The position numbers were made by a program, and so were the translations under genes. Below are positions 5,172 through 64,000 of a stretch of DNA of 64,000 bases, piece after piece. The notes below the pieces were generated by a model. The model was given only the letters and a program-made list of their open reading frames with translations, did not search any database and was not told where the DNA came from. How positions within the stretch are numbered: the stretch's first letter is position 1; each line of letters begins with the position of its first letter. Source of the DNA: an uncultured Planctomycetia bacterium (GTDB lineage Bacteria > Planctomycetota > Planctomycetia > CAXEIY01); contig CAXEIY010000213.1 of the NCBI GenBank assembly GCA_963996245.1, positions 1,371-65,370 on the forward strand. Reading direction: 5' to 3'.

Positions 5172-5362
5172 GCCACTGCCTTTATCCAGAACGCATGTAA
5201 TGCAGGATCGACTGCCTTGTGCGATCCTATCTTCTTTCCCAATTCATCAATTTCTACTTACTTCTATCAAGCCTTCCATACTTCAAGCCTGGTTACACTC
5301 AGATGGGAAAAACGCGAACAACCAGGCCTCACCTTCCTTGGAATTTTCGTTCAATGCTGTCT

Positions 5363-7003: not shown

Positions 7004-7568
7004 CGTTCATCCCAATATAGACAGCAATCCACGAATCGTTGCGCCAAGCGCAACTGGTACTAGCGGCTGTGAGAACCTGCTGTAGCCTTACTCACCCGCA
7101 TACGCAAACCAACAAGAATAATTATGCGCACCTCACGAATTCTATACCGCCACCTTTAATTATTGCAAGGGCTTTAATGAATCTGGAACGACACACGGGC
7201 TATCTTTGTGACTGCCAGGCTACTCAGAAAGACTCGTTTTTAATTCACACAGGGCCGTTTCCTCCAAGTTATTCTTTCGCTAAACCACCATACGAAGTCG
7301 AATTCCTTCGGAAGGATTCCGATCACTCCGAGGATCGAAAACGGCCCTGTTGCAACAGCCATTCGATCGATTTGCTGAAAGAAATACGAGTGCCATAGCC
7401 GTGCTCAAAAGAAATGGTAAGATGACTGTGGGTAGTCAGGATTTCCTGTTACCTGATGACCCTCTGACCAAACAAGCAGCACACAATACGGCTAATTCCA
7501 AACACTCGTCATACCATATTGTCTTTTTCCTTAAAGCGTTATCCTAATCACGACGAGGAACAAGAACC

Positions 7569-8651: not shown

Positions 8652-8794
8652 GATGCATCCCACGCATCAGGTACATAATCCGACCTCTGTCCTACAACAG
8701 AGGCAGATTACTGGATTTGCGCAAACCAGCCAAAATTCAGCCCTCGCCTTGAATAGGCCGATGACTACAACAAAAGTACGGGCAAACGACTTAC

Positions 8795-10141
8795 TTAAAT
8801 ACTCCAACCTTTTCGATATTCCCGTCGGATATAGGAATCTGCTTCACCACAATTGGTAGCACGCAGTTGCAGATCATCCCAAACCAACTTTTCCCCGCCA
8901 AGACGATAGGAAACATTGCCGAGCAGAACTGTTTCCGTCAAGGCACCAGAATAATCAAAATTACATGTCGTATTATCGCGATGCTTCACAGCTTCAATAA
9001 ATTCGGCATGATGTCCCAGTGAATTTGGAATGGTTGGAGCAGGAGAAGCAAAAGCAGAACCTTCCGTCATAAAAACTTTCTTAGAACCGTAATCAGCCAG
9101 CAATCGACCCTTTTCTCCCTCAAAAAGAACAGCGGATCCTTTTCCATCCCCATATTCGGTAAATTCTGAGGGACGATAATCGCCCTGATACCATGTCAGA
9201 TGAACCGGAGGAAGATCATCCCGGGCAGGATAACGATAGTCGACTCGCATGTGATTTGGACACTCATTGTCACCTTCATGTCCTTTTTCCCCGGAAGCCT
9301 GAACCGTCTCCGGAGCCCTCAACTGAAGCGCCCAGTGGGGTAGATCCATATAATGGCACCCAAAGTCACCCAAGTTGCCGTTGCCAAAATCCCACCAATA
9401 TCTCCAGTTAAAATGGAAATGATCGCTGCTAAATGGTCGCATTGGTGCCGGTCCAGTCCAAAGGTCATAATTGATATGCGGGGGAACCGGACCTGTTTTG
9501 GATTCTGAAAACACCCGAACCTTACCGCCATACCAGACATGAACACGCGTAACGGCACCGAGCGCACCAGACTGTACGATCTCGACCGCACGACGATAAT
9601 TATCTCCTGCGTGAATCTGGGTTCCCAGTTGCGTTACTGCTTTTTGCCGTGCAGTCCATTCCCTGATGTGTCGCGCTTCCCATACGGAGTGCGCCAAGGG
9701 CTTCTCGCAATAGACATCGAAGCCTGCCTGCAATGCCGCTATTACCGGAAAGAAATGCATGTGGTCAGGTGTTGAAACCACCACACAATCAAGATCCGAA
9801 TGATCGATAACGCGTCGATAGTCATCATAGGCACTGGCAGACGGATACTGTTCCATTGCCATCCCAAGTCGTTGTGAATCGATATCACACAAAGCAACTA
9901 TATTTTCCGATGAAACGCCCGAAAGATTGGAAGCTCCACGAGCAGCTACCCCAATTACTCCTACATTCAGTTTCTCATTTGGAGATTTAGAAAGCGCAGG
10001 AACGCTGTCAGCTCCAACGGGATCCTGACAAGGGATTACAGAAATCGCTGTTCCCGCTAATGTTGCCTGACGAAGGAACTGTCGCCGACTGAAGGCTGCG
10101 CGCATTGTTTGCTCCTTGTTAAAAAGTCGCTTTTCCACCAA
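8795..10141 (-). CDS. Gfo/Idh/MocA family oxidoreductase with Tat signal
   Basis: A twin-arginine leader 'RRQFLRQATLAGTA' is followed by an NAD-binding Rossmann fold 'LNVGVIGVAARG' and the EKP motif 'YCEKPLAHS'. Confidence 0.8.
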   Translation of the reverse strand: MVEKRLFNKEQTMRAAFSRRQFLRQATLAGTAISVIPCQDPVGADSVPALSKSPNEKLNVGVIGVAARGASNLSGVSSENIVALCDIDSQRLGMAMEQYPSASAYDDYRRVIDHSDLDCVVVSTPDHMHFFPVIAALQAGFDVYCEKPLAHSVWEARHIREWTARQKAVTQLGTQIHAGDNYRRAVEIVQSGALGAVTRVHVWYGGKVRVFSESKTGPVPPHINYDLWTGPAPMRPFSSDHFHFNWRYWWDFGNGNLGDFGCHYMDLPHWALQLRAPETVQASGEKGHEGDNECPNHMRVDYRYPARDDLPPVHLTWYQGDYRPSEFTEYGDGKGSAVLFEGEKGRLLADYGSKKVFMTEGSAFASPAPTIPNSLGHHAEFIEAVKHRDNTTCNFDYSGALTETVLLGNVSYRLGGEKLVWDDLQLRATNCGEADSYIRREYRKGWSI

Positions 10142-10328
10142 GTCTAAAGAATAACCTCGATCTGCGGCGTAAACCAGTCACGAAAGGACAACAAGGATAT
10201 GACTGATAGTGACGTCACGCAAAGAAAACCTAGTTCAACAAACGCGAGATTAAATTCCTACATCCAGCTTCACAACGTACAATAGTCTCTGTTACATAAC
10301 TCCCTGCACCATCACTGAAGTTTGTTTC

Positions 10329-11132
10329 ATGCAAAATGCAGACGATTCACCCCGTTCTCTTGAATTCGTTTTCCTTGGTACAGGCACGTCCCATGGAGTA
10401 CCCATGATTGGTTGCAGGTGTCCGGTTTGCATCTCAACCAATCCTCGCAACAAACGGACACGCTGTGGTGTTGTTGTCAAAACACCCTCCGGGAATATCC
10501 TCATTGATACGCCACCAGAACTGCGATTGCAGTTGGTTCGCGAAGACATCAGAGTGATTCACTCCGTTTTGTACACACACAGCCATGCAGATCACCTGTT
10601 CGGTCTTGATGATATCCGTATCTTCCCCCACTACCTCGACCAACCCGTTCCCATCTATTGCGAATCGTCTGTTGAAACCCAGATACGACAATCTTTTTCC
10701 TATGCGTTCGACCCACTGACCAAACAAGTCCCCTCCGGGGGACTACCACAGATGGTATTTCGTAGCATTCAACTTGATCCCTTCGAAGTTTTGGGCTTAC
10801 CAGTTATACCGATTCGACTCGAACACGGACGATATCAGGTCCTTGGTTTTCGCATTGGAAATCTCGCATACTGTACAGACGTTAAGGTCATTCCGCCTGA
10901 AAGCTGGCCGCTTCTGGAAGGTCTCGACATTTTGATACTGGACGCGTTGCGGGAAAAACCCCATCCCACACACATGTGTATCGCGGAAAGCCTCGAAGTA
11001 GTTGAAAAAGTTCGTCCTAAACAGACGTATTTTACCCATATAGCACACCACCTCGACCACGATGCTACCATGGCTCAATTACCGGATGGGGTTGCTCTGG
11101 CATATGATGGGTTGTCTTTTCCATTTGCATAA
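10329..11132 (+). CDS. MBL-fold metallo-hydrolase (PhnP-like)
   Basis: The 'THSHADHLFGLDDIR' H.H.DH metallo-beta-lactamase motif is present, with an N-terminal Cys cluster 'CRCPVC'. Confidence 0.75.
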   Translation: MQNADDSPRSLEFVFLGTGTSHGVPMIGCRCPVCISTNPRNKRTRCGVVVKTPSGNILIDTPPELRLQLVREDIRVIHSVLYTHSHADHLFGLDDIRIFPHYLDQPVPIYCESSVETQIRQSFSYAFDPLTKQVPSGGLPQMVFRSIQLDPFEVLGLPVIPIRLEHGRYQVLGFRIGNLAYCTDVKVIPPESWPLLEGLDILILDALREKPHPTHMCIAESLEVVEKVRPKQTYFTHIAHHLDHDATMAQLPDGVALAYDGLSFPFA

Positions 11133-11317
11133 CGAATCAGAAATCGAATTCCCTTTTCCGAAGAACCCGTAACACCTATACCCATAATCCATTGTTACTT
11201 CGTGTGTCAGGAAAATATTCCGTTGTCACAAGAATGTAAGAACCCGACCAACATGTTTCATCTGTTAGATTTGGCACCTCAGCGAACAACTGGAAAACCA
11301 AAATAAGGAGAAGACGC

Positions 11318-12475
11318 ATGCCCCTGGAACGCAATGTCTCAAACCGCCGATCTTTCTTAACCCATACAGTGGGCCTTGCTGCACCGACCTTTTTGGCACA
11401 TCAGAGTGCCTACCCGGCCTTGGGGAAAAATACATCAAACCGTAGCTCCACTCCTGCTGTGGCTGCTAGAAAAACTTCGAATATTCGGATTGGTATTCGG
11501 ATTCACCAGGGATGGTTGAATAGTAAAAATGACAATGACCTTCTCTTTCTCAAACAAATCGGCGTAAATCACGTCGACATCACTTTAAATCTGATCAAAG
11601 GCTACCAAGAGAACGGAATTTTTACTAAAGACAATTTGCGCGCGCTCATTCGCAGGTTGGATGGCTCTGGACTCGTGATTGAACGCGCTAACTCACTGGG
11701 TAACCACTACCTGCATGCTCATCTTCATGATGCCCAGGGACAACGGGAAATAGATCACTTGAAACGAATTGGCGATATGCTTTCCGACTGCGAAATACCT
11801 GTCTACGGAATCCAGGCATGCCAGGCAGCCTCCCATGTAGAAAATTCAAGAGGTGGCTGGGTCTATGAAAAAGGTCGTGGCGGCTATCGTTTTCCATCAT
11901 TTGATGTCAAGCGTGCTCTATCTGCGGCACCTAAACCAAAATACCTCATAACCGCAGAACAGCTCTGGAAAGGGCTCCTCAATATTTACCGGCAGGTCAT
12001 ACCACATGTTGAGGGCAGTAAAACAAACATAGCCATGCATGGCAATGATCCGCCATTATATCACTACCTTGGTAACCCGCAGATTTTGTGTCGATTTGCA
12101 GACTTCGACCGTCTTTTCTCAGAAGTTCCAAGCTCTCATAATGGAATCACTTTTTGTGTGGGAACACGCTACGAGTCTGGCCAGAACATTCTTGATGGGA
12201 TCCGTCACTTTGGCAATCAAGGAAAACTATTCCATGTCCACTTTCGGAATGTCATAGGTACTCTGCCAAAAGATGGCCATTATTCGGAAGTTTTTGTTGA
12301 TGACGGTGATATCCGCATGCCGGATGTTTTGCGTGCGCTCCACGAGGTCGGTTATCAGGGAGTGATTGATTACGACCACCCCATGGGCATTACTGGAGAT
12401 GAGCCCTTACCTAAGCAGTACATCTCATTTTGCGTTGGTTATATGCGAGGCTTATTACAGAGCTTAGATCGTTAA
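11318..12475 (+). CDS. Xylose-isomerase-like TIM-barrel protein (UxuA / sugar phosphate isomerase-like) with Tat signal
   Basis: A Tat leader 'RRSFLTHTVGLAAPTF' is present. The C-terminal 'GYQGVIDYDHPMG' segment resembles the mannonate-dehydratase / AP-endonuclease-2 TIM-barrel metal site. Confidence 0.5.
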   Translation: MPLERNVSNRRSFLTHTVGLAAPTFLAHQSAYPALGKNTSNRSSTPAVAARKTSNIRIGIRIHQGWLNSKNDNDLLFLKQIGVNHVDITLNLIKGYQENGIFTKDNLRALIRRLDGSGLVIERANSLGNHYLHAHLHDAQGQREIDHLKRIGDMLSDCEIPVYGIQACQAASHVENSRGGWVYEKGRGGYRFPSFDVKRALSAAPKPKYLITAEQLWKGLLNIYRQVIPHVEGSKTNIAMHGNDPPLYHYLGNPQILCRFADFDRLFSEVPSSHNGITFCVGTRYESGQNILDGIRHFGNQGKLFHVHFRNVIGTLPKDGHYSEVFVDDGDIRMPDVLRALHEVGYQGVIDYDHPMGITGDEPLPKQYISFCVGYMRGLLQSLDR

Positions 12476-12573
12476 CACAAAACATAACGAACAAGTATTC
12501 CGTTCGGACAACTTTCGGCTTGTCCTGGGATAGACTACTACCGAATCCCTTTATCCACTTACGTATTTTCAAG

Positions 12574-13302
12574 ATGTTTATCATACCTGTTGTTGATCTA
12601 AAGAATGGCCAAGTTGTGCACGGGATAGCTGGACAACGGGATCAGTACCAACCTGTTCAAAGCGTGCTTACCTCGAGTAGCAAGCCCCTGGATGTCATTT
12701 GTGCTTTTGAAAAGCATTTCCGATTTCAAAACACGTATCTGGCTGATCTGGATGCGATTGAAGGTGGGCCGCCCGCTTACTCTCTCTATCAAGCGATTCA
12801 GGACCTGGGAACGCGCCTGTGGGTTGATGCCGGCATTCACAACCTCACCGACGCGCGAAACCTGATCCAATATGGTGTGGATCAAGTGATCGCTGGTCTA
12901 GAGACACTTTCCGATGCATCGATACTCGGGGAACTTGTCGCTGAAGTGGGTCCAGACCAACTTGTTTTCAGTTTAGATCTCAAATCCGGAAAACCGATGG
13001 GTGTCTCGACAGGCTGGAAAAGCCGAACTGTTCATGGGATGGTGGAACAGGCTGTAGATCTTGGAGTACGGAAGCTGATTGTTCTGGATCTATCCCGAGT
13101 GGGTGTTGATCAGGGAACGGGTACCTTGGACCTCTGCAGATGGATCAAGAACCACTTTCCTGATCTTGTACTTGTTTCGGGTGGAGGAATCCGCGACATA
13201 ACAGACCTGCAGGCTTTGTCAAAAACCGGTCTCGAAGCTGCGCTCGTCGCTTCTGCACTGCATGACGGCCGCATTGGAACTGCAGATCTTGCATTGATTT
13301 GA
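12574..13302 (+). CDS. HisA/HisF family (beta/alpha)8-barrel protein
   Basis: 'MFIIPVVDLKNGQVVHG' matches the HisA/HisF N-terminal phosphate-binding strand. C-terminal 'VSGGGIRD' matches the second phosphate-binding motif. The start was moved to the ATG at 12574, because the track ORF start at 12430 overlaps the upstream gene. Confidence 0.65.
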   Translation: MFIIPVVDLKNGQVVHGIAGQRDQYQPVQSVLTSSSKPLDVICAFEKHFRFQNTYLADLDAIEGGPPAYSLYQAIQDLGTRLWVDAGIHNLTDARNLIQYGVDQVIAGLETLSDASILGELVAEVGPDQLVFSLDLKSGKPMGVSTGWKSRTVHGMVEQAVDLGVRKLIVLDLSRVGVDQGTGTLDLCRWIKNHFPDLVLVSGGGIRDITDLQALSKTGLEAALVASALHDGRIGTADLALI

Positions 13303-13328
13303 ATTTCTTACGTACCGCAACGGACTTC

Positions 13329-13853
13329 CTAATCCGACCATTCACAAATCCCTCGTTGACCATAGCATTCATCCACGTCTACTCGAAGCATAGACGGATA
13401 AAAGTGTTTTTGCTCATCCAGCACCTGTTTCAACTGCAGGCCAATCCATTCTGCGAGTAATTCGGCAGTCGTGTTGGCAACCGGTAACAAGACACAGTCT
13501 TCTTCAGGAAAAACCCATCTGCGGTCTTGGAACTGAACCACTACTTCCTGCCCTTTTTCCGTCACCTGTATCCGTTTACTCCGTAATGGCAGCAGTACAT
13601 GATGATCCAGAATTCCCGTAATTTCACGCAATGTTTCGCGGAGCCAAATGAAATCAACGACATAAGAATTCTCATCCAGAGGCCCTTCGATCACAATTTC
13701 TGTTCGATAATTGTGTCCATGCAGTCGTTCGCACTCATTTTCATTAAAGGTAATAAAATGTGCTGCACTGAACACCAGATCATCTTTGGTTACCTTCACT
13801 TGATACCGAGGTAACTTGGTATCCATGACCGTAGAGCTTTTCAAACTTGACAT
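13329..13853 (-). CDS. 6-pyruvoyl-tetrahydropterin synthase family protein (PTPS/QueD-like)
   Basis: The 'CERLHGHNY' Cys..HGH zinc/catalytic motif is characteristic of the PTPS/QueD fold. Confidence 0.7.
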   Translation of the reverse strand: MSSLKSSTVMDTKLPRYQVKVTKDDLVFSAAHFITFNENECERLHGHNYRTEIVIEGPLDENSYVVDFIWLRETLREITGILDHHVLLPLRSKRIQVTEKGQEVVVQFQDRRWVFPEEDCVLLPVANTTAELLAEWIGLQLKQVLDEQKHFYPSMLRVDVDECYGQRGICEWSD

Positions 13854-14272
13854 GACACCCTCGTATATACAAACCTTATTAATATTTCAGACAAAAGCCT
13901 GGCCATAGTGCGCCGTATAGCCCCTTCCGTGAAAGGTTCCTCTCGGTTTCTGTAATCGCTTACCCGACTTGCCACTCGAAATACGGGTAGCAAACCCTAT
14001 CGTCGGTTATTTACTGAAATAGCCAAAACTGAATGCCTCATGTTCATCAATCGCTTTACCCTCTCACGGCATTCAGTCACTCATAACTGCATAGTTCTTA
14101 CGATTTATCGTAGCGAATCCCGTATCCTCCTCGTATCTTAATGACTATTACTGTACTACCAGCAGCGGAATGGGATTTCTTACTGCTCAGGGACATACTG
14201 GGTTGCTGGTAACTCAGTGATTTCCGTTCATAGCTTAATCCGTTCATTCATCCTCAATCCAGTCGCCACTTT

Positions 14273-15067
14273 ATGGTAATACCATCCGTTAAAAAAACCC
14301 GTGTCCTGGCCATTCATGCGCATCCTGACGACATTGAATTTCAATGCGCAGGCACATTGTCACTACTCCAGCGGGCCGGATGTCAACTTCATCTGACCAC
14401 CATGACTGCTGGTGATTGTGGATCAGCCGACTTAAAGCCGGAGGAAATTGCCCAAATACGGCGAGACGAAGCACGGCAATCCGCCTCCGTTATCGATGCA
14501 GAATACCAGTGTTTGGAATTCATGGACCTTTCTATTACAGCAGACACGACATCCCACCGTCGTGTTACGGAAGCCATACGAAAAACTCGACCTGACATTG
14601 TATTGACAGCCCCTCCAATCGACTACATGTCTGATCACGAAGTGACCAGTCGCCTGGTGCGAGATGCTTGTTTTAGCGCTTCAGTTCCCAATTTTTCAAC
14701 TCATCAGTGGGATCCATGTGCACCTCTTGAACATATTCCACATCTCTACTACATGGACCCGATGGAAGGCGTTGACTGGTTCAGAAATCCCGTAGAACCT
14801 GATTTTTACATCAATATTTCATCCACCTACGAACAAAAAAAACAGATGCTGGCCTGCCATAACAGCCAACGCACATGGCTACAAAAACAACACGGTATCG
14901 ATGAATATCTGAGCAGTATGCACCGTTGGTCCTCACAGCGTGGCAAAGAAATTCGGGTGCCTTTCGCTGAAGCATTCCGTCAGCACACGGGCCATCCTTA
15001 CCCGCAAGACAACCTTTTACTCGCTCTTGTCTGTCAGGATGGAAAGGGGAAAACGGAACAAACTTAG
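14273..15067 (+). CDS. PIG-L family deacetylase (LmbE/BshB/MshB-like)
   Basis: An N-terminal 'VLAIHAHPDDIEF' zinc-binding motif is typical of PIG-L/LmbE N-acetylglucosaminyl deacetylases. Confidence 0.8.
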   Translation: MVIPSVKKTRVLAIHAHPDDIEFQCAGTLSLLQRAGCQLHLTTMTAGDCGSADLKPEEIAQIRRDEARQSASVIDAEYQCLEFMDLSITADTTSHRRVTEAIRKTRPDIVLTAPPIDYMSDHEVTSRLVRDACFSASVPNFSTHQWDPCAPLEHIPHLYYMDPMEGVDWFRNPVEPDFYINISSTYEQKKQMLACHNSQRTWLQKQHGIDEYLSSMHRWSSQRGKEIRVPFAEAFRQHTGHPYPQDNLLLALVCQDGKGKTEQT

Positions 15068-15234
15068 ATATCCGTTACCGCCATTCTTTTTTATTTAGTT
15101 AAAGAATCATTCCCCCACCAAAACAATCCGCTAAACTGACAACCTGGTCCCATTGAGTCCTTCTGTATATCCATTTGCAGGAATGACCGCATTCAGAAAC
15201 TCCCTTTTTTCTCAGGTGGCTGGAACCCGTAACG

Positions 15235-15627
15235 ATGGCCTTTGTCCTATCTCCTTTAAACAGTGACGGGCCCACAATTCCCGTTGACAAGCCAATCCTG
15301 GTTGTGGGACGCCATGTGGATTGTGACGTTTCCCTGAATGCATCGAAAGTCTCTCGTCGCCATTGCTGTATTGGCCAAATTGGAGAGTCACTCGTCATCA
15401 AAGATCTCGGTAGTACTAACGGTTTCAAAATCAATGGAAAAGCTATGATAGAAGCAGTACTTCATGTGGATGACAAACTGACTATCGCTCATTTCACCTG
15501 GACAGTGGGAAAAGTTTCCACGCCTTCCCGAACGCAATCCAAACCGGATGTTCTTACATCGGATAAACCCATTCCCGTTTCCGATGCAGAACTTAATTTT
15601 GAAGGTTTTGATCCCCACCGAGAATAG
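15235..15627 (+). CDS. FHA domain protein (stand-alone)
   Basis: 'ILVVGRHVDCDVSL..KVSRRHCCI......VIKDLGSTNGFKINGK' is the canonical FHA core (GR...SR.H...STNG). Confidence 0.8.
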   Translation: MAFVLSPLNSDGPTIPVDKPILVVGRHVDCDVSLNASKVSRRHCCIGQIGESLVIKDLGSTNGFKINGKAMIEAVLHVDDKLTIAHFTWTVGKVSTPSRTQSKPDVLTSDKPIPVSDAELNFEGFDPHRE

Positions 15628-44959: not shown

Positions 44960-46297
44960 ATGACCTCTTCGGAACAAAATTCAGATGGTTCACCCTCAAT
45001 CGGGATTTCCAAGGCGGATGTTCGCATGCGCGGTTTTCGCGATCGCAGTGAAGTTTCCGACGTAATAAAACTTATAGAAAAGCGAATCCATAAATTAGAC
45101 CAGGAATGGATACCTCTTGATGATACATCGAACCGAATTCTTTCACAGGATGTGACGGCCACGGTAGATGTGCCGGGTTTCGACCGATCCGCTATGGATG
45201 GTTATGCGGTACACGGGGAAGAAACCTTCGGTGCATCGAGTCTGGCTCCCTGCTGTCTGGAAGTCATCGGATCTTCCATGCCGGGACAACCTTTTACCGG
45301 AATTGTTCATTCCGGACAGGCCGTTAGAATCATGACCGGCTCTCCGATTCCCAATGGCGCCGATGCCGTAATCATGGCAGAACACACGCAGCTTCTACCC
45401 GATAACCGTATCGAGGTAACTGATGCTGTAGCACCTGGTCGGCATATTGGTGTCCGGGGGGAAGACATCGCTATTAACGACCAGGTCCTTTATTCAGGGC
45501 GGCGGCTTCGTCCGCAGGATCTGGGTCTCTTGTCTTCCATTGGCATTGGCATGGTTCCTGTATTCAGAAAGGCGCGTGTGGCAATCATCATCACAGGCGA
45601 TGAATTGTTGCCCGCCGGGCATACCCCTTCTGGCTTTCAAATCGCAGACTCCAATTCCGTCATGCTGAACGCACTGGTTCGACGCGATGGAGGATTACCC
45701 ACTATCCTGGGCCCGATTTCTGACCAACGTGAGAAGGTCCGCGAAGCGATTAACCAGCCTGATTTTGATTGTGTACTTGTTTCAGGAGGTTCTTCTGTAG
45801 GAGCGGAAGATCACGCACCCACACTCGTCGCTGAACTTGGCGAATTAACCGTTCACGGCATTGCCATGCGACCATCCAGTCCGGCAGGATTGGGTTTCGT
45901 ACCCTTTCGTTCTACAGAAAGCCAAATCTCTAACCTGGCTACTTCCAACTCACAGACTCCATGTGAGAAGCCGGTTTTCCTCTTACCTGGCAATCCCGTT
46001 TCCTGCCTTTGCGCCTATGACTTTTTTGCCGGTAAAGCTATTCGAATCATGAGTGGCGGAAGTATCAACTGGCCTTACCGATCTCAGATATTGCCACTCG
46101 CACGTAAAATCACTTCCGCTGTTGGCCGTGTTGACTACACTCGTATTCAAATTGAACAAGGCCTGGCAACTCCACTTGCGACCAGTGGTGCTTCTATTCT
46201 ATCGTCCACCACGCGCGCCGACGGTTTTGTTATTATTGGGCAGGACAGTGAAGGAGAACCAGAAGGAAACAGCATTCCTATTTACCTTTACGACTGA
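44960..46297 (+). CDS. moeA: Molybdopterin molybdotransferase
   Basis: 'PGFDRSAMDGYAV' is the MoeA N-domain motif. The MogA/MoaB-like domain 'ARVAIIITGDEL' and 'VLVSGGSSVG' follow. Confidence 0.8.
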   Translation: MTSSEQNSDGSPSIGISKADVRMRGFRDRSEVSDVIKLIEKRIHKLDQEWIPLDDTSNRILSQDVTATVDVPGFDRSAMDGYAVHGEETFGASSLAPCCLEVIGSSMPGQPFTGIVHSGQAVRIMTGSPIPNGADAVIMAEHTQLLPDNRIEVTDAVAPGRHIGVRGEDIAINDQVLYSGRRLRPQDLGLLSSIGIGMVPVFRKARVAIIITGDELLPAGHTPSGFQIADSNSVMLNALVRRDGGLPTILGPISDQREKVREAINQPDFDCVLVSGGSSVGAEDHAPTLVAELGELTVHGIAMRPSSPAGLGFVPFRSTESQISNLATSNSQTPCEKPVFLLPGNPVSCLCAYDFFAGKAIRIMSGGSINWPYRSQILPLARKITSAVGRVDYTRIQIEQGLATPLATSGASILSSTTRADGFVIIGQDSEGEPEGNSIPIYLYD

Positions 46298-46358
46298 CAC
46301 GCTCGGATCTGCCTTGTTGGCCGCCGAGCGTAATTCTACAAAAGAGTGACCACATCTC

Positions 46359-48362
46359 ATGCCACGTCAGGATCAATTCCTAGAAGTCATTGACCGGGAT
46401 GAAGCCGAGCGTCGCTTTCATGCCCAAGTCAACCTTGAACCAATTGGAACAGAGCCCGTATCTCTTCATAAGAGCCTCGGAAGACTGCTTGCCGTAAATA
46501 TTCATTCACAAAGTGATGTTCCCAGTTTTGATCGGTCCAATGTGGATGGGTATGCTACCCGAGCATCGGATACCTATGGTTGTTCTGAAGAAAAACCTGC
46601 TTCACTGATACTGGATAAAGAGGTCATTACGCCCGGTATTATCCCGAACAGCGAATTGCGTGAGGGACACACGATTACCATCGCAACTGGTGCCATGATT
46701 CCACGGGGGGCTGATTCCGTGGTGATGATTGAACACAGCTACCTGTCAGATAAGCAAGTCGCTGTAATACGTCCGGTAACGCCTGGGGCACATATCTCTT
46801 TCGCTGGCACAGACATCGCTTTGGGCGAGGTCGTTCTTCGCAAAGGAATTCGACTGACTTCACGGGAAACCGGTGTACTGGCTGCGCTGGGAATTACAGA
46901 AGTCTGCGTTTACAAACAACCTCGAGTCGGTATTATTTCGACCGGAAACGAGATCATTGCTCCGGGCGAATCAATGAAACCGGGGCTGATTTTCGATTCC
47001 AATGCAAGGATTCTGACGGACGCCGTCTCTGAACTATCCTGCCATCCAATCCCCTTTGGAATTTACAGGGACGACAAGAAACAAATTGATGGTGCGCTTC
47101 AACGGGCGTTAAAGGAATGTGATTTCGTCGTGATGTCCGGTGGAACCTCCAAAGGCGCTGGGGATTTGAATTACCAGGTCGTTGAAAAACTAAAACCCGG
47201 TATTGTAGTTCACGGTGTTGCCTTGAAGCCCGGTAAACCTATCTGTATGGCCGTTTCAGAAATGTTTTCCGACGACAAAACAAACCCCGATGCCGTACGT
47301 AAAATTCCAGTTGTGATTCTTCCTGGATTCCCAACTTCTGCAATCTTCACTTTTCATGAATTTGTCGCTCCGATTCTGCATGCTTTCGCCGGGCATCCGC
47401 AAACATCACGCCATCGCAACCACACACAGTTAATTAACGCATCCTTACCGATGCGCATCCATTCTGAGCGAGGTCGTACTGAATATCTTCTCGTCAATTT
47501 GGTTGAACAGATTGCAAGTGACAAAGGAACCCAGGCATCGGAAACCAACGAAATCCAATGGACTGCCTTTCCCATGGGAAAGGGATCCGGATCTGTAACC
47601 AGTTTTAGTCGAGCTGACGGATTTATTAAAATTGAACGCAACCAGGAATTGCTCGATAGCGGACAAAGCGTGGATGTGTGCCTTCTGGGAGATTCCCTGG
47701 AACCTGCGGATCTCGTTGCCATTGGTAGTCATTGCCAAGGGCTCGACCTCATTCTGAATCATTTTCATGAACAAGGCGGCATCAGTAAATACCTCACACT
47801 CGGATCGCATGGAGGGCTTCGCGCTGTAAAAAACGGGGAATGTGACATTGCTGGCATCCATCTTCTGGACCCCGTCACAAATGTTTATAACATCCCCTTC
47901 CTCAACTCCGAACTAGATCTCATTCCCGGATACAAGAGACAGCAGGGCGTTGTATTTCGTGCAGGTGATGCACGCTTTGAAAATCGAACTCTGGAAGAAA
48001 TTCTCGATCGCACCACATCGGACCCTCACTGCCAGATGGTCAATCGCAATCTTGGAAGTGGAACGCGCATCCTGATTGATCAAATGTTAGCTGATAAACG
48101 TCCCCCTGGTTATGCCATGCAACCCCACAATCACCAAGCCGTGGTTGCAGCGGTACAACAAGAACGCGCTGATTGGGGAATTGCCACCAAAACCGCAATA
48201 CAGGATGAACTTCTTGGATTCCTGCCCATTGTCGATGAAATTTTCGATTTTGTTGTTCTGAAATCGCGACGAGAGAGAGATTCTGTAAAACGCTTCTGTA
48301 ACTTGTTATTTGATAATAAGATACGCGAAGAGCTTTCACATCTTGGCTTAACCGCCTATTAA
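46359..48362 (+). CDS. MoeA-like molybdotransferase fused to a C-terminal periplasmic-binding-protein-like (putative molybdate/tungstate-binding) domain
   Basis: The N-terminal ~410 aa carry MoeA motifs ('PSFDRSNVDGYA', 'PRVGIISTGNEI', 'VVMSGGTSKG'). The C-terminal ~250 aa resemble the PBP type-2 fold ('LVAIGSHCQGLDLI...GECDIAGIHL'). Confidence 0.65.
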   Translation: MPRQDQFLEVIDRDEAERRFHAQVNLEPIGTEPVSLHKSLGRLLAVNIHSQSDVPSFDRSNVDGYATRASDTYGCSEEKPASLILDKEVITPGIIPNSELREGHTITIATGAMIPRGADSVVMIEHSYLSDKQVAVIRPVTPGAHISFAGTDIALGEVVLRKGIRLTSRETGVLAALGITEVCVYKQPRVGIISTGNEIIAPGESMKPGLIFDSNARILTDAVSELSCHPIPFGIYRDDKKQIDGALQRALKECDFVVMSGGTSKGAGDLNYQVVEKLKPGIVVHGVALKPGKPICMAVSEMFSDDKTNPDAVRKIPVVILPGFPTSAIFTFHEFVAPILHAFAGHPQTSRHRNHTQLINASLPMRIHSERGRTEYLLVNLVEQIASDKGTQASETNEIQWTAFPMGKGSGSVTSFSRADGFIKIERNQELLDSGQSVDVCLLGDSLEPADLVAIGSHCQGLDLILNHFHEQGGISKYLTLGSHGGLRAVKNGECDIAGIHLLDPVTNVYNIPFLNSELDLIPGYKRQQGVVFRAGDARFENRTLEEILDRTTSDPHCQMVNRNLGSGTRILIDQMLADKRPPGYAMQPHNHQAVVAAVQQERADWGIATKTAIQDELLGFLPIVDEIFDFVVLKSRRERDSVKRFCNLLFDNKIREELSHLGLTAY

Positions 48363-48372
48363 CGGAAAATAG

Positions 48373-48996
48373 ATGAATACGTTCCTCGCTGGCGGAATTG
48401 TTTTATGTGGTGGAAAAAGCAGTCGAATGGGTCGTCCGAAAGCCTGGCTTCCCTTTGGGCCAGAGGTACTGTTACAACGTATCGTGCGCATTCTCGACTC
48501 GGTTGTAGGACCACTGGTGGTCGTAGCTGCTCCAGATCAGGAGCTGCCTGACCTACCTGAACATGTACTTGTAACCCGCGATGAACTTCCTGGACGCGGC
48601 CCACTGGAAGGCTTGTCTGCTGGGTTACATGCACTGCCAGAAAGTACCACTGTCGCCTATCTGTCAGCCTGTGATGTCCCCTTTCTGAACAACCCATTCA
48701 TCAATAAACTAATATCCGATTTGGGGGATGCCGATATTGCGGTTCCATTTGCCGACGGTCATTACCATCCACTTGCCGCAGTCTACCGGACATCCATCAT
48801 TACGCAGGTCGACTGTTTACTGAACCAGGACCGCTTGAGGCCTTTCTTCCTATTCGACAAGGTCAATACTGTCCGCATCAGCGAAACACAATTGCGCAAA
48901 GTTGATCCAGAACTTGACTGTCTTCAGAATCTCAATCAGCTTTCCGATTATCACCTCGCGCTTGAGAAATTTCGCTCGCTCGCTGAGCCCGGTTGA
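48373..48996 (+). CDS. mobA: Molybdenum cofactor guanylyltransferase
   Basis: 'AGGIVLCGGKSSRMGRPKAWLPF' is the MobA nucleotide-binding signature. It sits 10 bp after the moeA-like gene. Confidence 0.8.
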   Translation: MNTFLAGGIVLCGGKSSRMGRPKAWLPFGPEVLLQRIVRILDSVVGPLVVVAAPDQELPDLPEHVLVTRDELPGRGPLEGLSAGLHALPESTTVAYLSACDVPFLNNPFINKLISDLGDADIAVPFADGHYHPLAAVYRTSIITQVDCLLNQDRLRPFFLFDKVNTVRISETQLRKVDPELDCLQNLNQLSDYHLALEKFRSLAEPG

Positions 48997-56687: not shown

Positions 56688-56761
56688 GGCGCCGTAGCCA
56701 AGTGGACCAAGGCAGCGGATTGCAAATCCGCGATTCGTGGGTTCGAATCCCACCGGCGCCT
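56688..56761 (+). tRNA. tRNA-Cys (anticodon GCA)
   Basis: A cloverleaf is visible. The 7-bp acceptor stem is GGCGCCG/CGGCGCC. The anticodon stem GCGGA/TCCGC encloses the loop TTGCAAA, giving anticodon GCA. The T-arm is GGGTTCGAATCCC. Length is 74 nt. Confidence 0.85.
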
Positions 56762-56926
56762 CTTTCCGTGTGAGTTATCTGGTTTTTCTATATGCCGCCC
56801 TATTCCGAAAATATACCGGCAACCGCTTCAAGAATGTAGATCCTGTTTCTCGTAACGGTTCATAGAATCGATCCTGTTACAATCACAACACCACGGTGCT
56901 GAAAACATTGGACCCCGACAAACTCG

Positions 56927-58273
56927 TTAAATGATTAGTTTATCGAGAACGCGTCCGGAAACATCTGTCAGTCGGAAGTCTCGCCCGGCATAGCGATAAG
57001 TCAACCGAGTATGGTCAAGTCCAAGCAGCGCTAATACGGTGGCGTGTAAATCGTGCACATGCACGGTGTTGTGAACGGCCTTAAATCCAAACGTATCCGT
57101 TTCTCCGTAAGCCATTCCACCGCGAATGCCGCCCCCTGCCATCCACATCGTCATTCCATAATGATTGTGATCCCGGCCATTGCCGTTTTCAGAGACAGGT
57201 GTCCTGCCAAACTCTCCACCCCAGATAACCAACGTGTCATCCAACATCCCTCGTTGTTTGAGATCACCCAGTAGTGCAGCAATGGGCTTATCGATATCCG
57301 CGGCAAGCTTTTTAACGGATTCATTATGGTTGTTGTGTGTATCCCATGGTTGCCCATTACCATAATAGACCTGAACAAATCGTACATCACGTTCAGCTAA
57401 ACGACGCGCCAGAAGACATCCGTGAGCAAAATGTCCCGTGCCATATTGCGAGTGAATGGTTTGCGGCTCTTGAGACAAATCGAAGGCTTCATGACCAGCA
57501 GACTGCATTCGAAAAGCTGTTTCCATAGCTTGAATTCGAGCCTCGAGCCGACCATCTACAACACGTTGCTTCAAATGCCGTTGATTTAACTGTTGAACGA
57601 GATCTAGATGCTCCCGTTGCGCTTGCTGTGACAACCTGTCATTTTTAAGAAAGGGAATCATTTTTCCTGGATCAATCTGAGAATGATTGATATAGCTTCC
57701 TTGAAATTGCGCTGGGAGAAAGGCACTATTCCACAGTATCGAAAATCGGACCGGTCTTCCCGGACACAACACCACATAACCCGGTAGATTTTCATTTTCA
57801 CTTCCTAAACCATACAGCATCCAAGAACCCATACTGGGCACCGTTGGTGTGATGGTGCCGTTGTTCATCAGCAACAACGCCGGACCATGGTTGGGATTGT
57901 CCGTATACACACTTCGCAACACGCACAGGTCATCGGCATGGGCTCGTAACCGGGGCAGTAACTCACTGATAGGCAAACCTGATTGCCCACACTTCGAATA
58001 TTGGAACGGCGATCCCAAAAGACCTCCCGTTTGGCGTTCCGTGCGCAGTTTTACTTCATTTGGACGCTGACCCTCATATTGATTGAGAGCCGGCTTAGGA
58101 TCAAAGAAATCACCCTGAAACGGCCCACCATTCATAAACAGCTGAATCACCCGTTTCGCACGTGGTCGATGATGATACGAATCTGCATTCTGCGGCCTGG
58201 CTTGCGCCAGCGCGCTCAGCCCAACCACACCCAGGCCACCTCCCATTGTCGAAATCCACTCGCGCCGGTTCAC
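56927..58273 (-). CDS. DUF1501 domain protein, Tat signal
   Basis: 'GGGIRGGMAYGETDTFGFKAVHNTVHVHDLHATVLALLGLDHTRL' is the DUF1501 C-terminal block. An N-terminal Tat-like leader is present. It is paired with the next gene. Confidence 0.85.
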   Translation of the reverse strand: MNRREWISTMGGGLGVVGLSALAQARPQNADSYHHRPRAKRVIQLFMNGGPFQGDFFDPKPALNQYEGQRPNEVKLRTERQTGGLLGSPFQYSKCGQSGLPISELLPRLRAHADDLCVLRSVYTDNPNHGPALLLMNNGTITPTVPSMGSWMLYGLGSENENLPGYVVLCPGRPVRFSILWNSAFLPAQFQGSYINHSQIDPGKMIPFLKNDRLSQQAQREHLDLVQQLNQRHLKQRVVDGRLEARIQAMETAFRMQSAGHEAFDLSQEPQTIHSQYGTGHFAHGCLLARRLAERDVRFVQVYYGNGQPWDTHNNHNESVKKLAADIDKPIAALLGDLKQRGMLDDTLVIWGGEFGRTPVSENGNGRDHNHYGMTMWMAGGGIRGGMAYGETDTFGFKAVHNTVHVHDLHATVLALLGLDHTRLTYRYAGRDFRLTDVSGRVLDKLII

Positions 58274-58307
58274 TTTTCAGATCCCACCTTAACCCTTGTT
58301 GGTCCAC

Positions 58308-60620
58308 TTAGTCGACAAATCCAAATTCATTCGCAATCAACAACGCATGCACATAACGAATCCAGGACTCTTTTCCAGACAATGCAACGTAGGACGTACC
58401 CATTTTTAATTCCGATGGAACGGCCTCTCGGCTGAAAAACCTTCGGAACAGTTGAGCTAAACGTTCTTCCACAGACAATGATTCCTTCCAACTCTCAACA
58501 TATTGCCCGGAACGCGACCATATAAAACTGCTGTTAAGTGAGTAAAGCTGCTGCAGGGGTGTCAACACTTGGTCACGTTTGGGACTATGCCCTGTTGGGT
58601 CTGGAAAACCGTGCATCTTGAGAACCGTATCCAGTTCCCGCCGTTTAATGGTTGCATAAAGCGTGCGACGGTTATTTTCCTGTACAGACAAATCTACAGA
58701 CGGGCCACCCATCGTCAGGTCTAACGATCCAGTTACTTTCAGGACGGAATCTCGCCAGGATTCAAAATCCAAGGAACGACGATTGGCACGCCAGTAGCTG
58801 GCGTTTTCAGGATCTTTTTCAAAAGAGTCGAGATGGATCTCTGATGACAGCTGATAGGTGTCACTGGTAACGATTATTCGATGTAACCATTTAAGTGACC
58901 ATCCATTGGCTACCAGTCCTGCCGCCAGATCACTGAGCAACTCCGGATGTGTTGATTTTTCACCTTGAAATCCAAAGTTACTGGGAGTCGCAACCAATCC
59001 TTTTCCAAAATGGTGCATCCAAACCCGGTTCACAATAACTCGTGCAACCAACCCTTGGGAGTATCGAAAAAGCGATTCCGCCAGTTCCAGTCGCCCACTC
59101 CCTTTTACAAAAGGAGCTGTTTCCTTATCAAAAACTTGCAAATAGCGCCGTGAAACCTGTTCTCCAACATAGGATGGATTGCCACGTAACTGAACATGCA
59201 GATTGCGCGCCTGACCTTTTGAGTAAACAAGTTTGGTACCCCATACGCCCGTTGGTTCGGGCAGCACCATGATACTGGCGTCGATGACCCCAGGAATGCG
59301 GGGTACCTCATAAAAAGGCGTACTCGCTTTTAACTCAGAAATTTTTTGTTTTGCGCGGTCAATCGCATTTTGAACCGTGTCTTTTTCACCTTTTTTCTCC
59401 TTCAGAAGTTGCATCTGCTGTTCTATTTTCAGCTCTATTTGCGTAATGCGCTCATCGGTTTCGATGATGGCTTCTCGATGATTTCTCTGAAGCAGAGGAA
59501 TATCGAAAATACGGCTACTCGCAAACACTCCCGCTAATGCGTAGTAGTCCTTCTGAGAAATCGGGTCAAATTTATGGTCATGGCAACGCGCACAGGCAAG
59601 GGATAATCCAAGGAAAGTTCGACCTAACATATCCACACGCTCTTCCCACTCTTCGGCTACGACGACCTTGATCACCTCGGGACTCAACTTGGGTTCTTTC
59701 CAATAGGTAGGACTGAGACCCAGTAGTCCCAATGCTGCAATATCTTCAGACCGGGACTCGGGTATATGATCTGCCGCCAGTTGCAGTTTGGCAAACTGGT
59801 CGTAGGGCATATCCTCATTGAAAGCACGTACGACCCAGTCTCGATAATAGTGAGAACCTGCTGTGCTCTTTAACCAACTTGAGGTTGTATCCGTATAACG
59901 CACCAGATCCAGCCAGAAGCGGGCCCAACGTTCACCATATTGCGGCGAGGCCAAATATTGATTTACCAGTAGTTCATATTGTTCAATCGATGGATTATCA
60001 ACAAATCGATTTACCACACTCCAGTCCGGAGGCAAGCCCGTCAAATCAAAACTCAAACGCCGAACACGTTGATTGCTCGAAGCGCGAGCAACTGGCATTA
60101 GCAGCTCCGCTTTTCGTCGTTTCTCTATCCAGTAGTCGATCGGATTGACTGTTTTGTCTCTCCAATCGTAGTTCGGCAGTGATTGAAAGGCCCAATGCTT
60201 GCGCCCCTCGGCGAAATCAATTACTACTTCTTTCCGGGGGATAGTTGCACCGGCAGGCATCTTGGCACCCTGTTTAATCCATTGCACCAGGATTGCCATT
60301 TCCTGGTCTGTGATCGGGTTTTCTGGAGGCATCTGAAGTTCAGCGTTTCGGTAAGAAACAGCGATGGCAATGAGGCTTTCTTCCGGTTTGCCAACAACCA
60401 GAGCCGGACCACGATCACCACCCACTAATACCGATTCTCTTGAATCAAGACTGAGACCCGCCTCTTTCCGTCCGCTCTCCTCGCTGTGACATTTATAACA
60501 ACGGGCAACAAACAACGGCCGTACTTTACTTTCAAAAAAGTGAAATTCTTCCGACTGCCCATTTGCACTTGTGAAAAGGCAACAACCGAAAACCAGAGCA
60601 AGTCTGTTTTTTAGATCCAT
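58308..60620 (-). CDS. Planctomycete PSCyt1/DUF1549/DUF1553 protein
   Basis: A signal peptide and PSCyt1 motif 'RCYKCHSEE' are present. DUF1549 ('RRLSFDLTGLPP') and DUF1553 ('CARCHDHKFDPISQKDYY') blocks follow. Confidence 0.85.
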   Translation of the reverse strand: MDLKNRLALVFGCCLFTSANGQSEEFHFFESKVRPLFVARCYKCHSEESGRKEAGLSLDSRESVLVGGDRGPALVVGKPEESLIAIAVSYRNAELQMPPENPITDQEMAILVQWIKQGAKMPAGATIPRKEVVIDFAEGRKHWAFQSLPNYDWRDKTVNPIDYWIEKRRKAELLMPVARASSNQRVRRLSFDLTGLPPDWSVVNRFVDNPSIEQYELLVNQYLASPQYGERWARFWLDLVRYTDTTSSWLKSTAGSHYYRDWVVRAFNEDMPYDQFAKLQLAADHIPESRSEDIAALGLLGLSPTYWKEPKLSPEVIKVVVAEEWEERVDMLGRTFLGLSLACARCHDHKFDPISQKDYYALAGVFASSRIFDIPLLQRNHREAIIETDERITQIELKIEQQMQLLKEKKGEKDTVQNAIDRAKQKISELKASTPFYEVPRIPGVIDASIMVLPEPTGVWGTKLVYSKGQARNLHVQLRGNPSYVGEQVSRRYLQVFDKETAPFVKGSGRLELAESLFRYSQGLVARVIVNRVWMHHFGKGLVATPSNFGFQGEKSTHPELLSDLAAGLVANGWSLKWLHRIIVTSDTYQLSSEIHLDSFEKDPENASYWRANRRSLDFESWRDSVLKVTGSLDLTMGGPSVDLSVQENNRRTLYATIKRRELDTVLKMHGFPDPTGHSPKRDQVLTPLQQLYSLNSSFIWSRSGQYVESWKESLSVEERLAQLFRRFFSREAVPSELKMGTSYVALSGKESWIRYVHALLIANEFGFVD

Positions 60621-62332: not shown

Positions 62333-62556
62333 GTGTCTTTCAGACACCATTCATTCCTGTACATGGATTCGTACGAATTGCCATCAAGAGCAAAGGGTGT
62401 CTAATACCTCTCGACACAACTCTGCCAGTAAACTTTGTGCATTCACATCGATCTTATCGGGAATGAAGATCGTTCCGTTTAGGCTAGAAAATCGGATTCG
62501 TGCGTACCTAAATATAATGAATCCCTTTTCACCCAGATGACCTACTCACAAGGGGA

Positions 62557-63120
62557 TTGCTATACATGGCCACTCATATTGATTGGATTGAAGACCAGGA
62601 TGCAACTGGTGAACTCGCGTCGTTGTATCAAAACTGGAAGGAGAAAAATCCAGGCCGAGAGGAAATTCCGGGCATCCTCAAGTGTTTCAGCCTGTCTCCG
62701 TCTTTCCTGCGAGACATCATCCGTGCCAGTGATACCGTCCATTTTACAGATGGACATCTTGATCGACGCACCAAAGAAATGATCGCCACCTATGTTTCCG
62801 GATTAAACCAATGTCCCTATTGAATCGGTTCCCACGCATATTTCTTGCAGTTGCAAGACGGAACTGACGACCTTGTTCAGGCACTCCTAAATAACAACCT
62901 ACTACACAAGTCAGTTTCTGAAAAAGAACGATATTTATTGACGTTTGTTAAACAAGTTACAGAACATGCCTATCAGACCAGCAGGGATGACACTGACGTT
63001 TTACGACAATCGGGATGGACGGATCCTGAAATTGCAGAAACCGTCTATATTACGGCTCTGTTTGCGTTCTTCAATCGTGTCGCGGACGCTTTTGGGCTTG
63101 AGGACCCTGGTTATCGCTAA
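62557..63120 (+). CDS. AhpD-like / carboxymuconolactone-decarboxylase-family peroxidase-related protein; candidate selenoprotein (in-frame TGA at 62821-62823 in place of the active-site Cys)
   Basis: Two track ORFs (62557..62823 and 62845..63120) are in the same frame, separated only by a TGA. Read-through gives 'NQCPY-U-IGSHAY', the AhpD C-x-x-C-x-x-x-H catalytic motif with Sec at the second Cys. A hairpin lies 21 nt downstream of the TGA. Confidence 0.55.
62842..62859 (+). promoter_or_regulatory. Candidate SECIS-like hairpin downstream of in-frame TGA
   Basis: tcCTTGCagttGCAAGac: a perfect 5-6 bp stem with a G/U-containing apical loop lies about 21 nt 3' of the UGA. This is compatible with a compact bacterial SECIS. 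Confidence 0.35.
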
Positions 63121-63196: not shown

Positions 63197-64000
63197 ATGT
63201 GTGCCTCACCAGATACCTTACGAGACCGTAAAGGCCGTATTTACGAACCTGCTGTAGGTGCGAAGTTAAAAAAGCTTCTTTTGGTGCTTTTTGCTGTTAT
63301 TGCACTGCTGGGTGCTAACAGCTTTTACTTGGTCACCATACGTATTCTCGGGCCCACGGTTCAAAACTGGTTGTATCCCTGGATGTTTCTGATGCATCTG
63401 ATTCTGGGACTGCTCATTATTGTCCCGTTTATGATCTTCGCCGTACGTCACCTGTGGGCTGCCTGGGGACGGACCAATCGACGCGCGGTGCGCGCCGGAG
63501 TTGCCTTGCTTATCACCGCTGTGGTTCTCATCGTCAGCGGAGTGACCCTTTTACGATTACCCGGTGTATACGAAGTCAAAAATCCTACGACACATGGTTT
63601 CATGTACACCCTACATGTTGTCACACCTTTACTTGCTATTGCACTTTACATCGCACATCGTCGTGCTGGACCTCGTATTCAGTGGAAGTGGGGTTACCTT
63701 TGGGGCACCGTTGCTATTGTTATGACAGGTGGTCTGGCCATCTTACATCACGAAGATCCGCGACAATGGAACCTGCAACAATCAAGGGAAGGTTTGAAAT
63801 ATTTTGATCCTTCAGAAGCACGCACCAAAACAGGAGGATTCATTTCTGAGGAAATTCTAAGTTTCGATTGTCGTAGATGTCATGAGGATGTTTATCAGGG
63901 CTGGTTTCACTCCGCGCATCACTTGAGTTCCTTTAACAATCCTCCCTATTTATTCAGCATATCTGAGACACGTGATATGGCTCAAAAACGGGATGGCAAT
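63197..64000 (+). CDS. Membrane-anchored protein with a CxxCH heme-binding motif (putative c-type cytochrome), partial; runs off window end
   Basis: The frame is open from the ATG at 63197 to the window end. It is not in the ORF track because no stop falls in the window. Four predicted TM helices are followed by 'FDCRRCHEDVYQGWFHSAHH'. Confidence 0.45.
   Translation, partial: MCASPDTLRDRKGRIYEPAVGAKLKKLLLVLFAVIALLGANSFYLVTIRILGPTVQNWLYPWMFLMHLILGLLIIVPFMIFAVRHLWAAWGRTNRRAVRAGVALLITAVVLIVSGVTLLRLPGVYEVKNPTTHGFMYTLHVVTPLLAIALYIAHRRAGPRIQWKWGYLWGTVAIVMTGGLAILHHEDPRQWNLQQSREGLKYFDPSEARTKTGGFISEEILSFDCRRCHEDVYQGWFHSAHHLSSFNNPPYLFSISETRDMAQKRDGN

Follow-up and report, generated by a model that had tools for sequence, protein, structure and literature searches.

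An AhpD-like gene of an uncultured marine planctomycete with an in-frame UGA predicted to encode selenocysteine

Results and Discussion

We analysed a 64,000-nucleotide (nt) stretch of DNA from an uncultured Planctomycetia bacterium (GenBank assembly GCA_963996245.1, contig CAXEIY010000213.1, positions 1,371 to 65,370 of the forward strand), referred to below as the window, with attention to a gene near its 3' end that is interrupted by a single in-frame TGA codon. Comparison with related sequences indicates that positions 62566-63120 of the forward strand very probably encode a 184-residue AhpD-like thiol/selenol oxidoreductase, in which the UGA at 62821-62823 is decoded as selenocysteine (Sec). 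The confidence that we place in this assignment derives from the conservation of the TGA among relatives, the conservation and covariation of a hairpin that follows it, purifying selection on the codons downstream, the family and fold of the product, and the linkage of orthologues to sel genes. The gene has every testable defining feature of the known "AhpD-like CxxU" selenoprotein family and is a mis-annotated member of it, as public gene calls give it as an 85-residue product ending at the TGA, in 117 blocks of assemblies.

Reading frame and start of the gene

The frame 62557-63120 contains one internal stop, the TGA at 62821-62823, and is closed by a TAA terminator at 63118-63120; the two open reading frames (ORFs) that a mechanical list reports here, 62557-62823 and 62845-63120, lie in the same frame. 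A preliminary inspection of the window, made from the DNA letters without database searches (the "sequence-only reading"), had proposed that both ORFs together make up one AhpD-fold protein of about 187 residues. The joined protein is borne out by the single frame and by matches to the NCBIfam model TIGR01926 and the Pfam CMD domain, but the length has to be corrected: the probable start is the ATG at 62566, rather than the TTG at 62557, and the gene (62566-63120) comprises 184 codons and the TAA stop. We prefer this start because a Shine-Dalgarno-like purine run, AAGGGG (62550-62555, forward strand, recognised from sequence only), lies 10 nt upstream of it, because a homologue with 96% identity begins with MATHIDW, and because the public gene calls agree. 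TGA closes 21 of the 48 long ORFs in the window, more than any other stop codon does, and therefore the codon is not reassigned genome-wide. A scan of the window for further ORFs split by TGA revealed no other convincing selenoprotein candidate.

Protein family, fold and active site

With Cys placed at the position of the stop, the joined product matches the Pfam CMD domain (PF02627) with an expectation (E) value of 4e-13 and, over residues 11-178, the TIGR01926 model ("peroxidase-related enzyme") with 96.2 bits, against a curated cutoff of 81.8 (E 1.9e-27). The NF041238 model, which describes AhpD_rel_CFYUT (seleno)proteins, scores 55 bits, under its cutoff of 175, with only the C-terminal half of the model matched. 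The AlphaFold model of the protein comprises nine helices, with a predicted local distance difference test (pLDDT) score of 94.5 and a predicted template modelling (pTM) score of 0.89. The closest solved structures found with phmmer are 2prr, 2oyo, 2pfx, 3c1l and the Deinococcus AhpD 6k40 (E 6e-16 to 4e-13); these are Cys forms with 21-26% identity to the window protein, and their substrates are mostly unknown. Foldseek superposition of the model on these structures yields template modelling (TM) scores of 0.83-0.86 over about 182 residues, with 2prr at a TM score of 0.86 and E 1e-8. The Pfam match, the confident model and the superposition on 2prr all agree with the carboxymuconolactone-decarboxylase/AhpD fold named by the sequence-only reading. 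With gamma-carboxymuconolactone decarboxylase (PcaC) itself the protein shares only the Pfam CMD domain, and no pca genes occur among the neighbours called around the gene.

The active-site motif reads E71 ... C83-P-Y-[TGA]86-I-G-S-H90, and the TGA aligns with the second Cys of the CPYC..SH motif in Cys-containing homologues, exactly the position in the C-x-x-C-x-x-x-H motif to which it had initially been assigned; likewise, the CxxU motif of the window protein aligns with the CxxC of the solved AhpD-like structures. Glu71 (GAA, 62776-62778), 12 residues before Cys83, and His90 (CAC, 62833-62835) occupy invariant alignment columns, Cys83 (TGT, 62812-62814), the first Cys of CxxU, is Cys in 100% of both clades of relatives, and the codon at 62821-62823, TGA in the relatives, corresponds to the predicted Sec86 at the second, nucleophilic Cys position of CxxC; all four codons are on the forward strand. 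The spacing of these residues equals that of Glu118, Cys130, Cys133 and His137 in Mycobacterium tuberculosis AhpD, where the second Cys is the nucleophile.

The position of the TGA also bears on the possibility that it is a genuine terminator, which would leave an 85-residue N-terminal fragment and maybe a separate C-terminal fragment translated from the TTG at 62845. Two ORFs can indeed formally be drawn, and under selenium scarcity termination at the UGA would be an expected by-product. Such a split, however, would cut a single compact domain in two, within the active-site motif, there is no ribosome-binding context before 62845, and the relatives keep in frame the codons of the SHAYF peptide, which lies between the TGA and the supposed second start. 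We consider genuine termination highly improbable.

Conservation of the TGA codon among relatives

To place the codon in its phylogenetic context we used a scan with one genome per species, which yielded 80 loci at 56-67% identity to the window protein. Seventy-eight of these could be parsed (L020 and L064 failed the pattern match) and, with the addition of two further sequences, L001 and L002, they form a set of 80 relatives. All 80 have TGA at this codon and a conserved frame downstream of it, and the FFNR motif is found exactly 82 codons after the TGA in 81 of 81 sequences, the window counted. The carriers belong mostly to Planctomycetota and to Acidobacteriaceae/Terriglobales, with single metagenome-assembled genomes (MAGs) labelled Deltaproteobacteria and Eisenbacteria, and cultured carriers among them are Tundrisphaera lichenicola P12, Tautonia sociabilis GM2012 and Acidobacteriaceae bacterium KBS 83. 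Cys appears at this codon in the next tier of more distant homologues. The comparison of homologous codons that had been suggested at the outset thus gives TGA in the parsed close relatives and Cys further away, and the truncation of close homologues, which had been named as an observation that would speak against Sec, is not seen in any of the parsed sequences.

Among the best 120 homologues in the protein database, about 50 have CPYW at the site and the remainder CPYC. We retrieved the DNA behind two of the proteins with Trp, L001 (from TARA, 96% identity) and L002 (60% identity), and found TGA in both; the Trp at the Sec position is presumably an artefact that arose when short contigs were called with genetic code 4. 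The same miscalling makes the product of L002 (positions 823-1470) overrun its true TGA stop by 21 residues.

An error of sequencing or assembly at the TGA has a practically negligible probability, given that the identical truncated product recurs in independent assemblies (117 blocks; 23 contigs read) and that L001 and the marine variants L088-L091, which come from different samples, all carry the TGA.

Translation downstream of the TGA

A comparison of the window with L001 reveals 11 synonymous and 2 non-synonymous codon changes before the TGA, and 13 synonymous (plus the change of the terminal TAA to TAG) and 4 non-synonymous changes after it. In the marine strain variants L088, L090 and L091 there are only synonymous differences, on either side of the TGA. 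The 13:4 ratio of synonymous to non-synonymous changes after the TGA shows purifying selection, and therefore translation of the downstream codons. For the window's own lineage, this selection rules out both a pseudogene and a product that is genuinely truncated.

The pseudogene explanation, according to which a chance nonsense mutation hit the codon of the active-site Cys and left the two ORFs to decay as remnants, draws on the facts that TGC or TGT is converted into TGA by one base change, that the public annotation shows a truncated gene, and that the window is without Sec genes. It has to contend not only with the pattern of substitutions in the window's own lineage, but also with the sharing of the TGA by all 80 parsed relatives across phyla, with a downstream frame that is intact and retains the invariant motifs, and with a hairpin that is conserved at synonymous sites, as described below. 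We regard it as extremely unlikely.

A hairpin downstream of the UGA with the properties of a bacterial SECIS element

The sequence-only reading had drawn attention to a hairpin, CTTGCagttGCAAG, about 21 nt past the UGA, as a candidate selenocysteine insertion sequence (SECIS), and had advised a check with a predictor of bacterial elements. The hairpin is real and the quoted sequence is its core, but it begins 19-20 nt after the UGA. The conserved core (62843-62858, forward strand) consists of a 6-bp upper stem, in which 62843-62848 pair with 62853-62858, and of the apical loop AGUU (62849-62852), which begins 25 nt after the UGA; its delimitation is based on pairing, on synonymous constraint and on the published bacterial SECIS (bSECIS) model. 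In the minimum-free-energy fold of the lineage represented by the window, the core is enclosed by an 8-bp lower stem, in which 62825-62832 pair with 62860-62867, and the whole forms an extended stem-loop at 62825-62867 (forward strand). The fold energy is -18.1 kcal/mol, with z = -2.06 relative to shuffled sequences, 5 out of 200 of which fold equally well.

As a standard for comparison we used the bSECIS consensus given in the legend of Fig. 2 of PMC13188914, which describes a loop of 3-9 nt, an upper stem of 4-16 bp, a spacing of 16-37 nt from the UGA to the loop, an energy at or below -7.5 kcal/mol, and a G within the first two loop positions, usually with G or U next to it (PMC13188914). 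The hairpin of the window has a 4-nt loop on a 6-bp stem, a distance of 25 nt, energies of -16.2 and -18.1 kcal/mol, and the loop A-G-U-U, which in relatives is AGUU, GGUC or CGUGUU. The proposed SECIS assignment therefore agrees with the published bacterial model, and selection at the RNA level, for which the evidence follows, supports it as well.

In an alignment of 49 distinct sequences, 97.6% of the cells that belong to the upper stem are paired. A compensatory double change from C-G to U-A is found in the window and, independently, in the Isosphaeraceae MAG L023, and L074 has the U-G intermediate. Codons +7 to +12 after the UGA (F-L-Q-L-Q-G/D) are the top six-codon stretch in third-position conservation within a segment of 146 codons, with values of 0.88 versus 0.58 elsewhere in the planctomycete-type clade and of 0.95 versus 0.64 in the acidobacterial-type clade. 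All 41 of 41 sequences use TTG for Leu+10, a uniformity not seen in other conserved Leu columns, where CTG, CTC and TTG occur together. Between the window and L001 there is not a single substitution in the 66 nt from 62818 to 62883, compared with differences at about 6% of positions in the rest of the gene. The Cys-form homologues L092 and L093 have other residues in the hairpin region, and are without the hairpin. A separate variation was noted in L024, L060 and L066, in which the peptide FLQLQ is changed to FLRSQ (codons +9 and +10) and the loop AGUU to GGUC, the tetraloop of E. coli fdhF, with the stem intact.

Sec machinery beside orthologous genes

In the acidobacterial loci the orthologue of the window gene lies directly after selD-selA-selB, on the same strand; all three sel genes are present in at least 24 loci and at least two of them in 28. 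The loci with selD-selA-selB are L026, L027, L031, L034, L038, L039, L044, L047-L050, L053-L055, L057, L059, L063, L065, L067, L071, L076-L078 and L080, with the cluster at about 5100-10540 in each. In nearly all acidobacterial loci scanned with ARAGORN, a divergent tRNA-Sec (minus strand, anticodon UCA, 95 nt) is located just before selD, so that the order of the cluster in Acidobacteriaceae/Terriglobales is tRNA-Sec, selD, selA, selB and, last, the AhpD-like Sec gene. The Sec machinery of Acidobacteriaceae may serve mainly or solely this AhpD-like gene. Our literature searches found no account of an AhpD-like gene in linkage with sel genes for Acidobacteria, which is no proof that the linkage is unreported. 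Several Planctomycetes are reported to possess the full Sec machinery (PMC4807772). The predicted presence of selA, selB, selD and tRNA-Sec elsewhere in the genome of the window, which the sequence-only reading had expected, has strong though indirect support in the acidobacterial linkage and in the purifying selection after the TGA.

This linkage is relevant to the proposal that the UGA is recoded as an amino acid other than Sec, either as Cys, by a tRNA-Sec-like tRNA(Cys) with UCA anticodon (selC*/selB*), or as Trp or Cys by near-cognate read-through. Opal suppressors of this kind, the selC* tRNA(Cys) species that mimic tRNA-Sec, do exist in some anaerobic bacteria and have been reported in Firmicutes, Thermodesulfobacteria, Nitrospirae and Proteobacteria (PMC5389517), and DNA cannot reveal the identity of the inserted residue. 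Nevertheless, the machinery adjacent to the orthologues includes selD and selA, i.e. genes of Sec synthesis, in addition to a SelB-like factor, and, as selA and selD serve to make Sec and not Cys, their presence there argues against suppression of the selC* type. Furthermore, ARAGORN calls the 95-nt tRNA by the orthologue tRNA-SeC, a plain TGC would give Cys at no cost, and the phyla with selC* differ from those of the carriers studied here. We judge a non-Sec recoding to be very unlikely.

Observations that weigh against Sec, and the proposed mechanism

Several observations weigh against the decoding of the UGA as Sec or against its proposed signal. ARAGORN detected no tRNA-Sec in the 64-kb window, tblastn searches with SelA, SelB and SelD of E. 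coli gave no match there, and sel genes and tRNA-Sec were likewise not found in the 10 kb past its 3' end. The hairpin overlaps the conserved peptide FLQLQ, so that part of its conservation is at the protein level. A shuffle control of the number of pairs, as a measure of covariation, was not significant overall; this control is uninformative because the conserved helix hardly varies, and for that reason synonymous-site conservation was measured instead. The lower stem is not kept in register in other lineages, where it is 43.6% paired, no better than slid controls. No Rfam family fits the hairpin: a permissive scan of 62780-62930 returned only chance matches to SNORD21 and Mu-gpT-DE, with E values above 3, although this negative is weak because bacterial SECIS elements are short. 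On account of the low pairing we rejected the lower stem (62825-62832 with 62860-62867) as a family-wide feature; it may be specific to this lineage.

If, as we consider very probable, the UGA is decoded as Sec, the following sequence of events can be proposed, in which the binding of SelB, the insertion of Sec by this organism, the redox reactions and the partner are what we infer. The mRNA hairpin at 62843-62858, with its AGUU loop 25 nt past the UGA and, here, the extension by the lower stem, would direct the insertion of Sec. SelB, presumably bound to this hairpin, would deliver tRNA-Sec once the UGA reaches the ribosomal A site, and translation would go on through the C-terminal 98 residues. 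In the resulting all-alpha AhpD fold, Sec would replace the nucleophilic cysteine of a C83-x-x-U86-x-x-x-H90 centre that also involves E71. The centre would cycle between the selenol/thiol and the selenenylsulfide states, and could in this way reduce a peroxidatic partner or a small oxidised substrate.

Comparison with known systems

The AhpD-like selenoproteins have been described repeatedly. Zhang, Fomenko & Gladyshev (2005, PMC1088965) discovered the "AhpD-like protein (COG2128), CxxU", represented by 27 sequences, as one of several new selenoprotein families in the Sargasso Sea metagenome; "AhpD-like 1" was the fourth most abundant selenoprotein family in the Global Ocean Sampling (GOS) data, with 299 sequences in 37 samples (PMC2398784); the family appears in a comparative-genomics census of 2006 (PMC1794560), and a review of 2026 lists the "AhpD-like protein, TIGR01926, CxxU" (PMC13188914). 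The statement of the sequence-only reading that AhpD-like proteins are a known bacterial selenoprotein family is accordingly well founded in this literature (PMC1088965, PMC2398784, PMC13188914). The window gene shares with the CxxU family the hidden Markov model family (TIGR01926/COG2128 type), the predicted Sec as the second residue of the motif, a SECIS hairpin that follows the UGA closely and has a small G-containing loop, and a marine origin. Nothing essential differs; the window gene is the copy of an uncultured marine planctomycete, called in databases as an 85-residue product or with Trp.

We also folded the E. coli fdhF element by the same method as the hairpin of the window. The two have in common a stem-loop right after the UGA, an internal loop, a short upper stem and a 4-nt loop whose second and third positions are G-U. 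They differ in the loop, which is AGUU at 25 nt in the window and GGUC at 18 nt in fdhF, and the upper stem of the window hairpin shows no evident bulged U.

To the AhpD of M. tuberculosis (Rv2429; 1knc, 1gu9), the characterised CxxC enzyme that reduces AhpC, the window protein is similar in the all-alpha fold and in the E...C-x-x-C-x-x-x-H motif, with spacings of 12, 3 and 4. It differs in having the predicted Sec in place of Cys, and the relationship is remote: Foldseek gives E values of about 0.08-0.5 and TM scores of 0.5-0.6 with 11% identity, and phmmer gives no match to this protein at E 0.01 or below. No ahpC or other peroxiredoxin gene (AhpC-TSA or Redoxin domain) was found among the genes called in the 20-kb stretch of L088 around the gene.

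Genomic neighborhood

Identical or near-identical copies of the window gene are present on many contigs of marine metagenomes (TARA, LUOE20, ERZ27288389), and its best named relatives belong to Planctomycetota. The gene before it encodes a 168-residue hypothetical protein. On its other side, after 77 nt and on the forward strand, begins the gene of a 963-residue protein that is anchored in the membrane and combines five CxxCH haem motifs and a Cytochrome_C554 domain with TPR repeats at the C terminus; only the start of this gene lies in the window (63198-64000). The next gene past this cytochrome encodes a 627-residue FG-GAP/UnbV_ASPIC protein. The pair of cytochrome and FG-GAP/UnbV_ASPIC genes, at about 50% identity, adjoins the AhpD-like Sec gene, before or after it, in at least 9 other planctomycete loci (L003, L004, L005, L006, L009, L015, L016, L019 and L041), and is weakly present near two acidobacterial loci. 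In the strain variant L088 the pair is at 10632-15417. The varying order of the selenoprotein gene and the pair hints at a possible functional coupling between them.

A different neighbor is found beside one of the Cys-form homologues, P0036 (L093, positions 748-1938), which adjoins a protein with fused EF-hand, T4_deiodinase and AhpC-TSA/Redoxin domains. Both deiodinase-like and Prx-like (peroxiredoxin-like) proteins are known selenoprotein families. A gene pair of the Prx-like and AhpD-like families has been noted in the GOS data (PMC2398784).

Two further regions of the window deserve mention. A tRNA-Cys gene (anticodon GCA, 56688-56762), the only match in a scan of the whole window at the Rfam gathering thresholds, lies beside a pair of genes at 56927-60620 that encode a PSCyt1/PSCyt2/PSD1 protein (770 residues) and a DUF1501 protein (448 residues). 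Such PSCyt/PSD1 and DUF1501 pairs are typical of Planctomycetota, and the arrangement fits a planctomycete origin. At 44960-48996 there is a molybdenum-cofactor cluster, in which two adjacent MoeA paralogues, of 445 and 667 residues, the longer with an extra PBP_like domain, are followed by a MobA-like NTP_transf_3 protein.

Conclusions

In biological terms the result is an expected one, as the CxxU AhpD-like family is one of the commonest among marine selenoproteins. It illustrates that a selenoprotein gene mishandled by public pipelines can be recognised correctly in a reading of raw sequence, and it adds a well-supported SECIS alignment for the AhpD-like family. A broader proposal would be that this subfamily acts as an "anchor" selenoprotein that keeps the Sec trait in two phyla and, in Planctomycetota, forms part of an undescribed envelope-linked, selenium-dependent redox module; we put this forward as a speculation that is unlikely to hold. 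The predicted selenoprotein implies that an abundant, uncultured lineage of marine planctomycetes decodes selenocysteine, and the linkage to sel genes in Acidobacteriaceae, together with the cytochrome/ASPIC neighborhood in Planctomycetota, may offer leads to the role of the enzyme.

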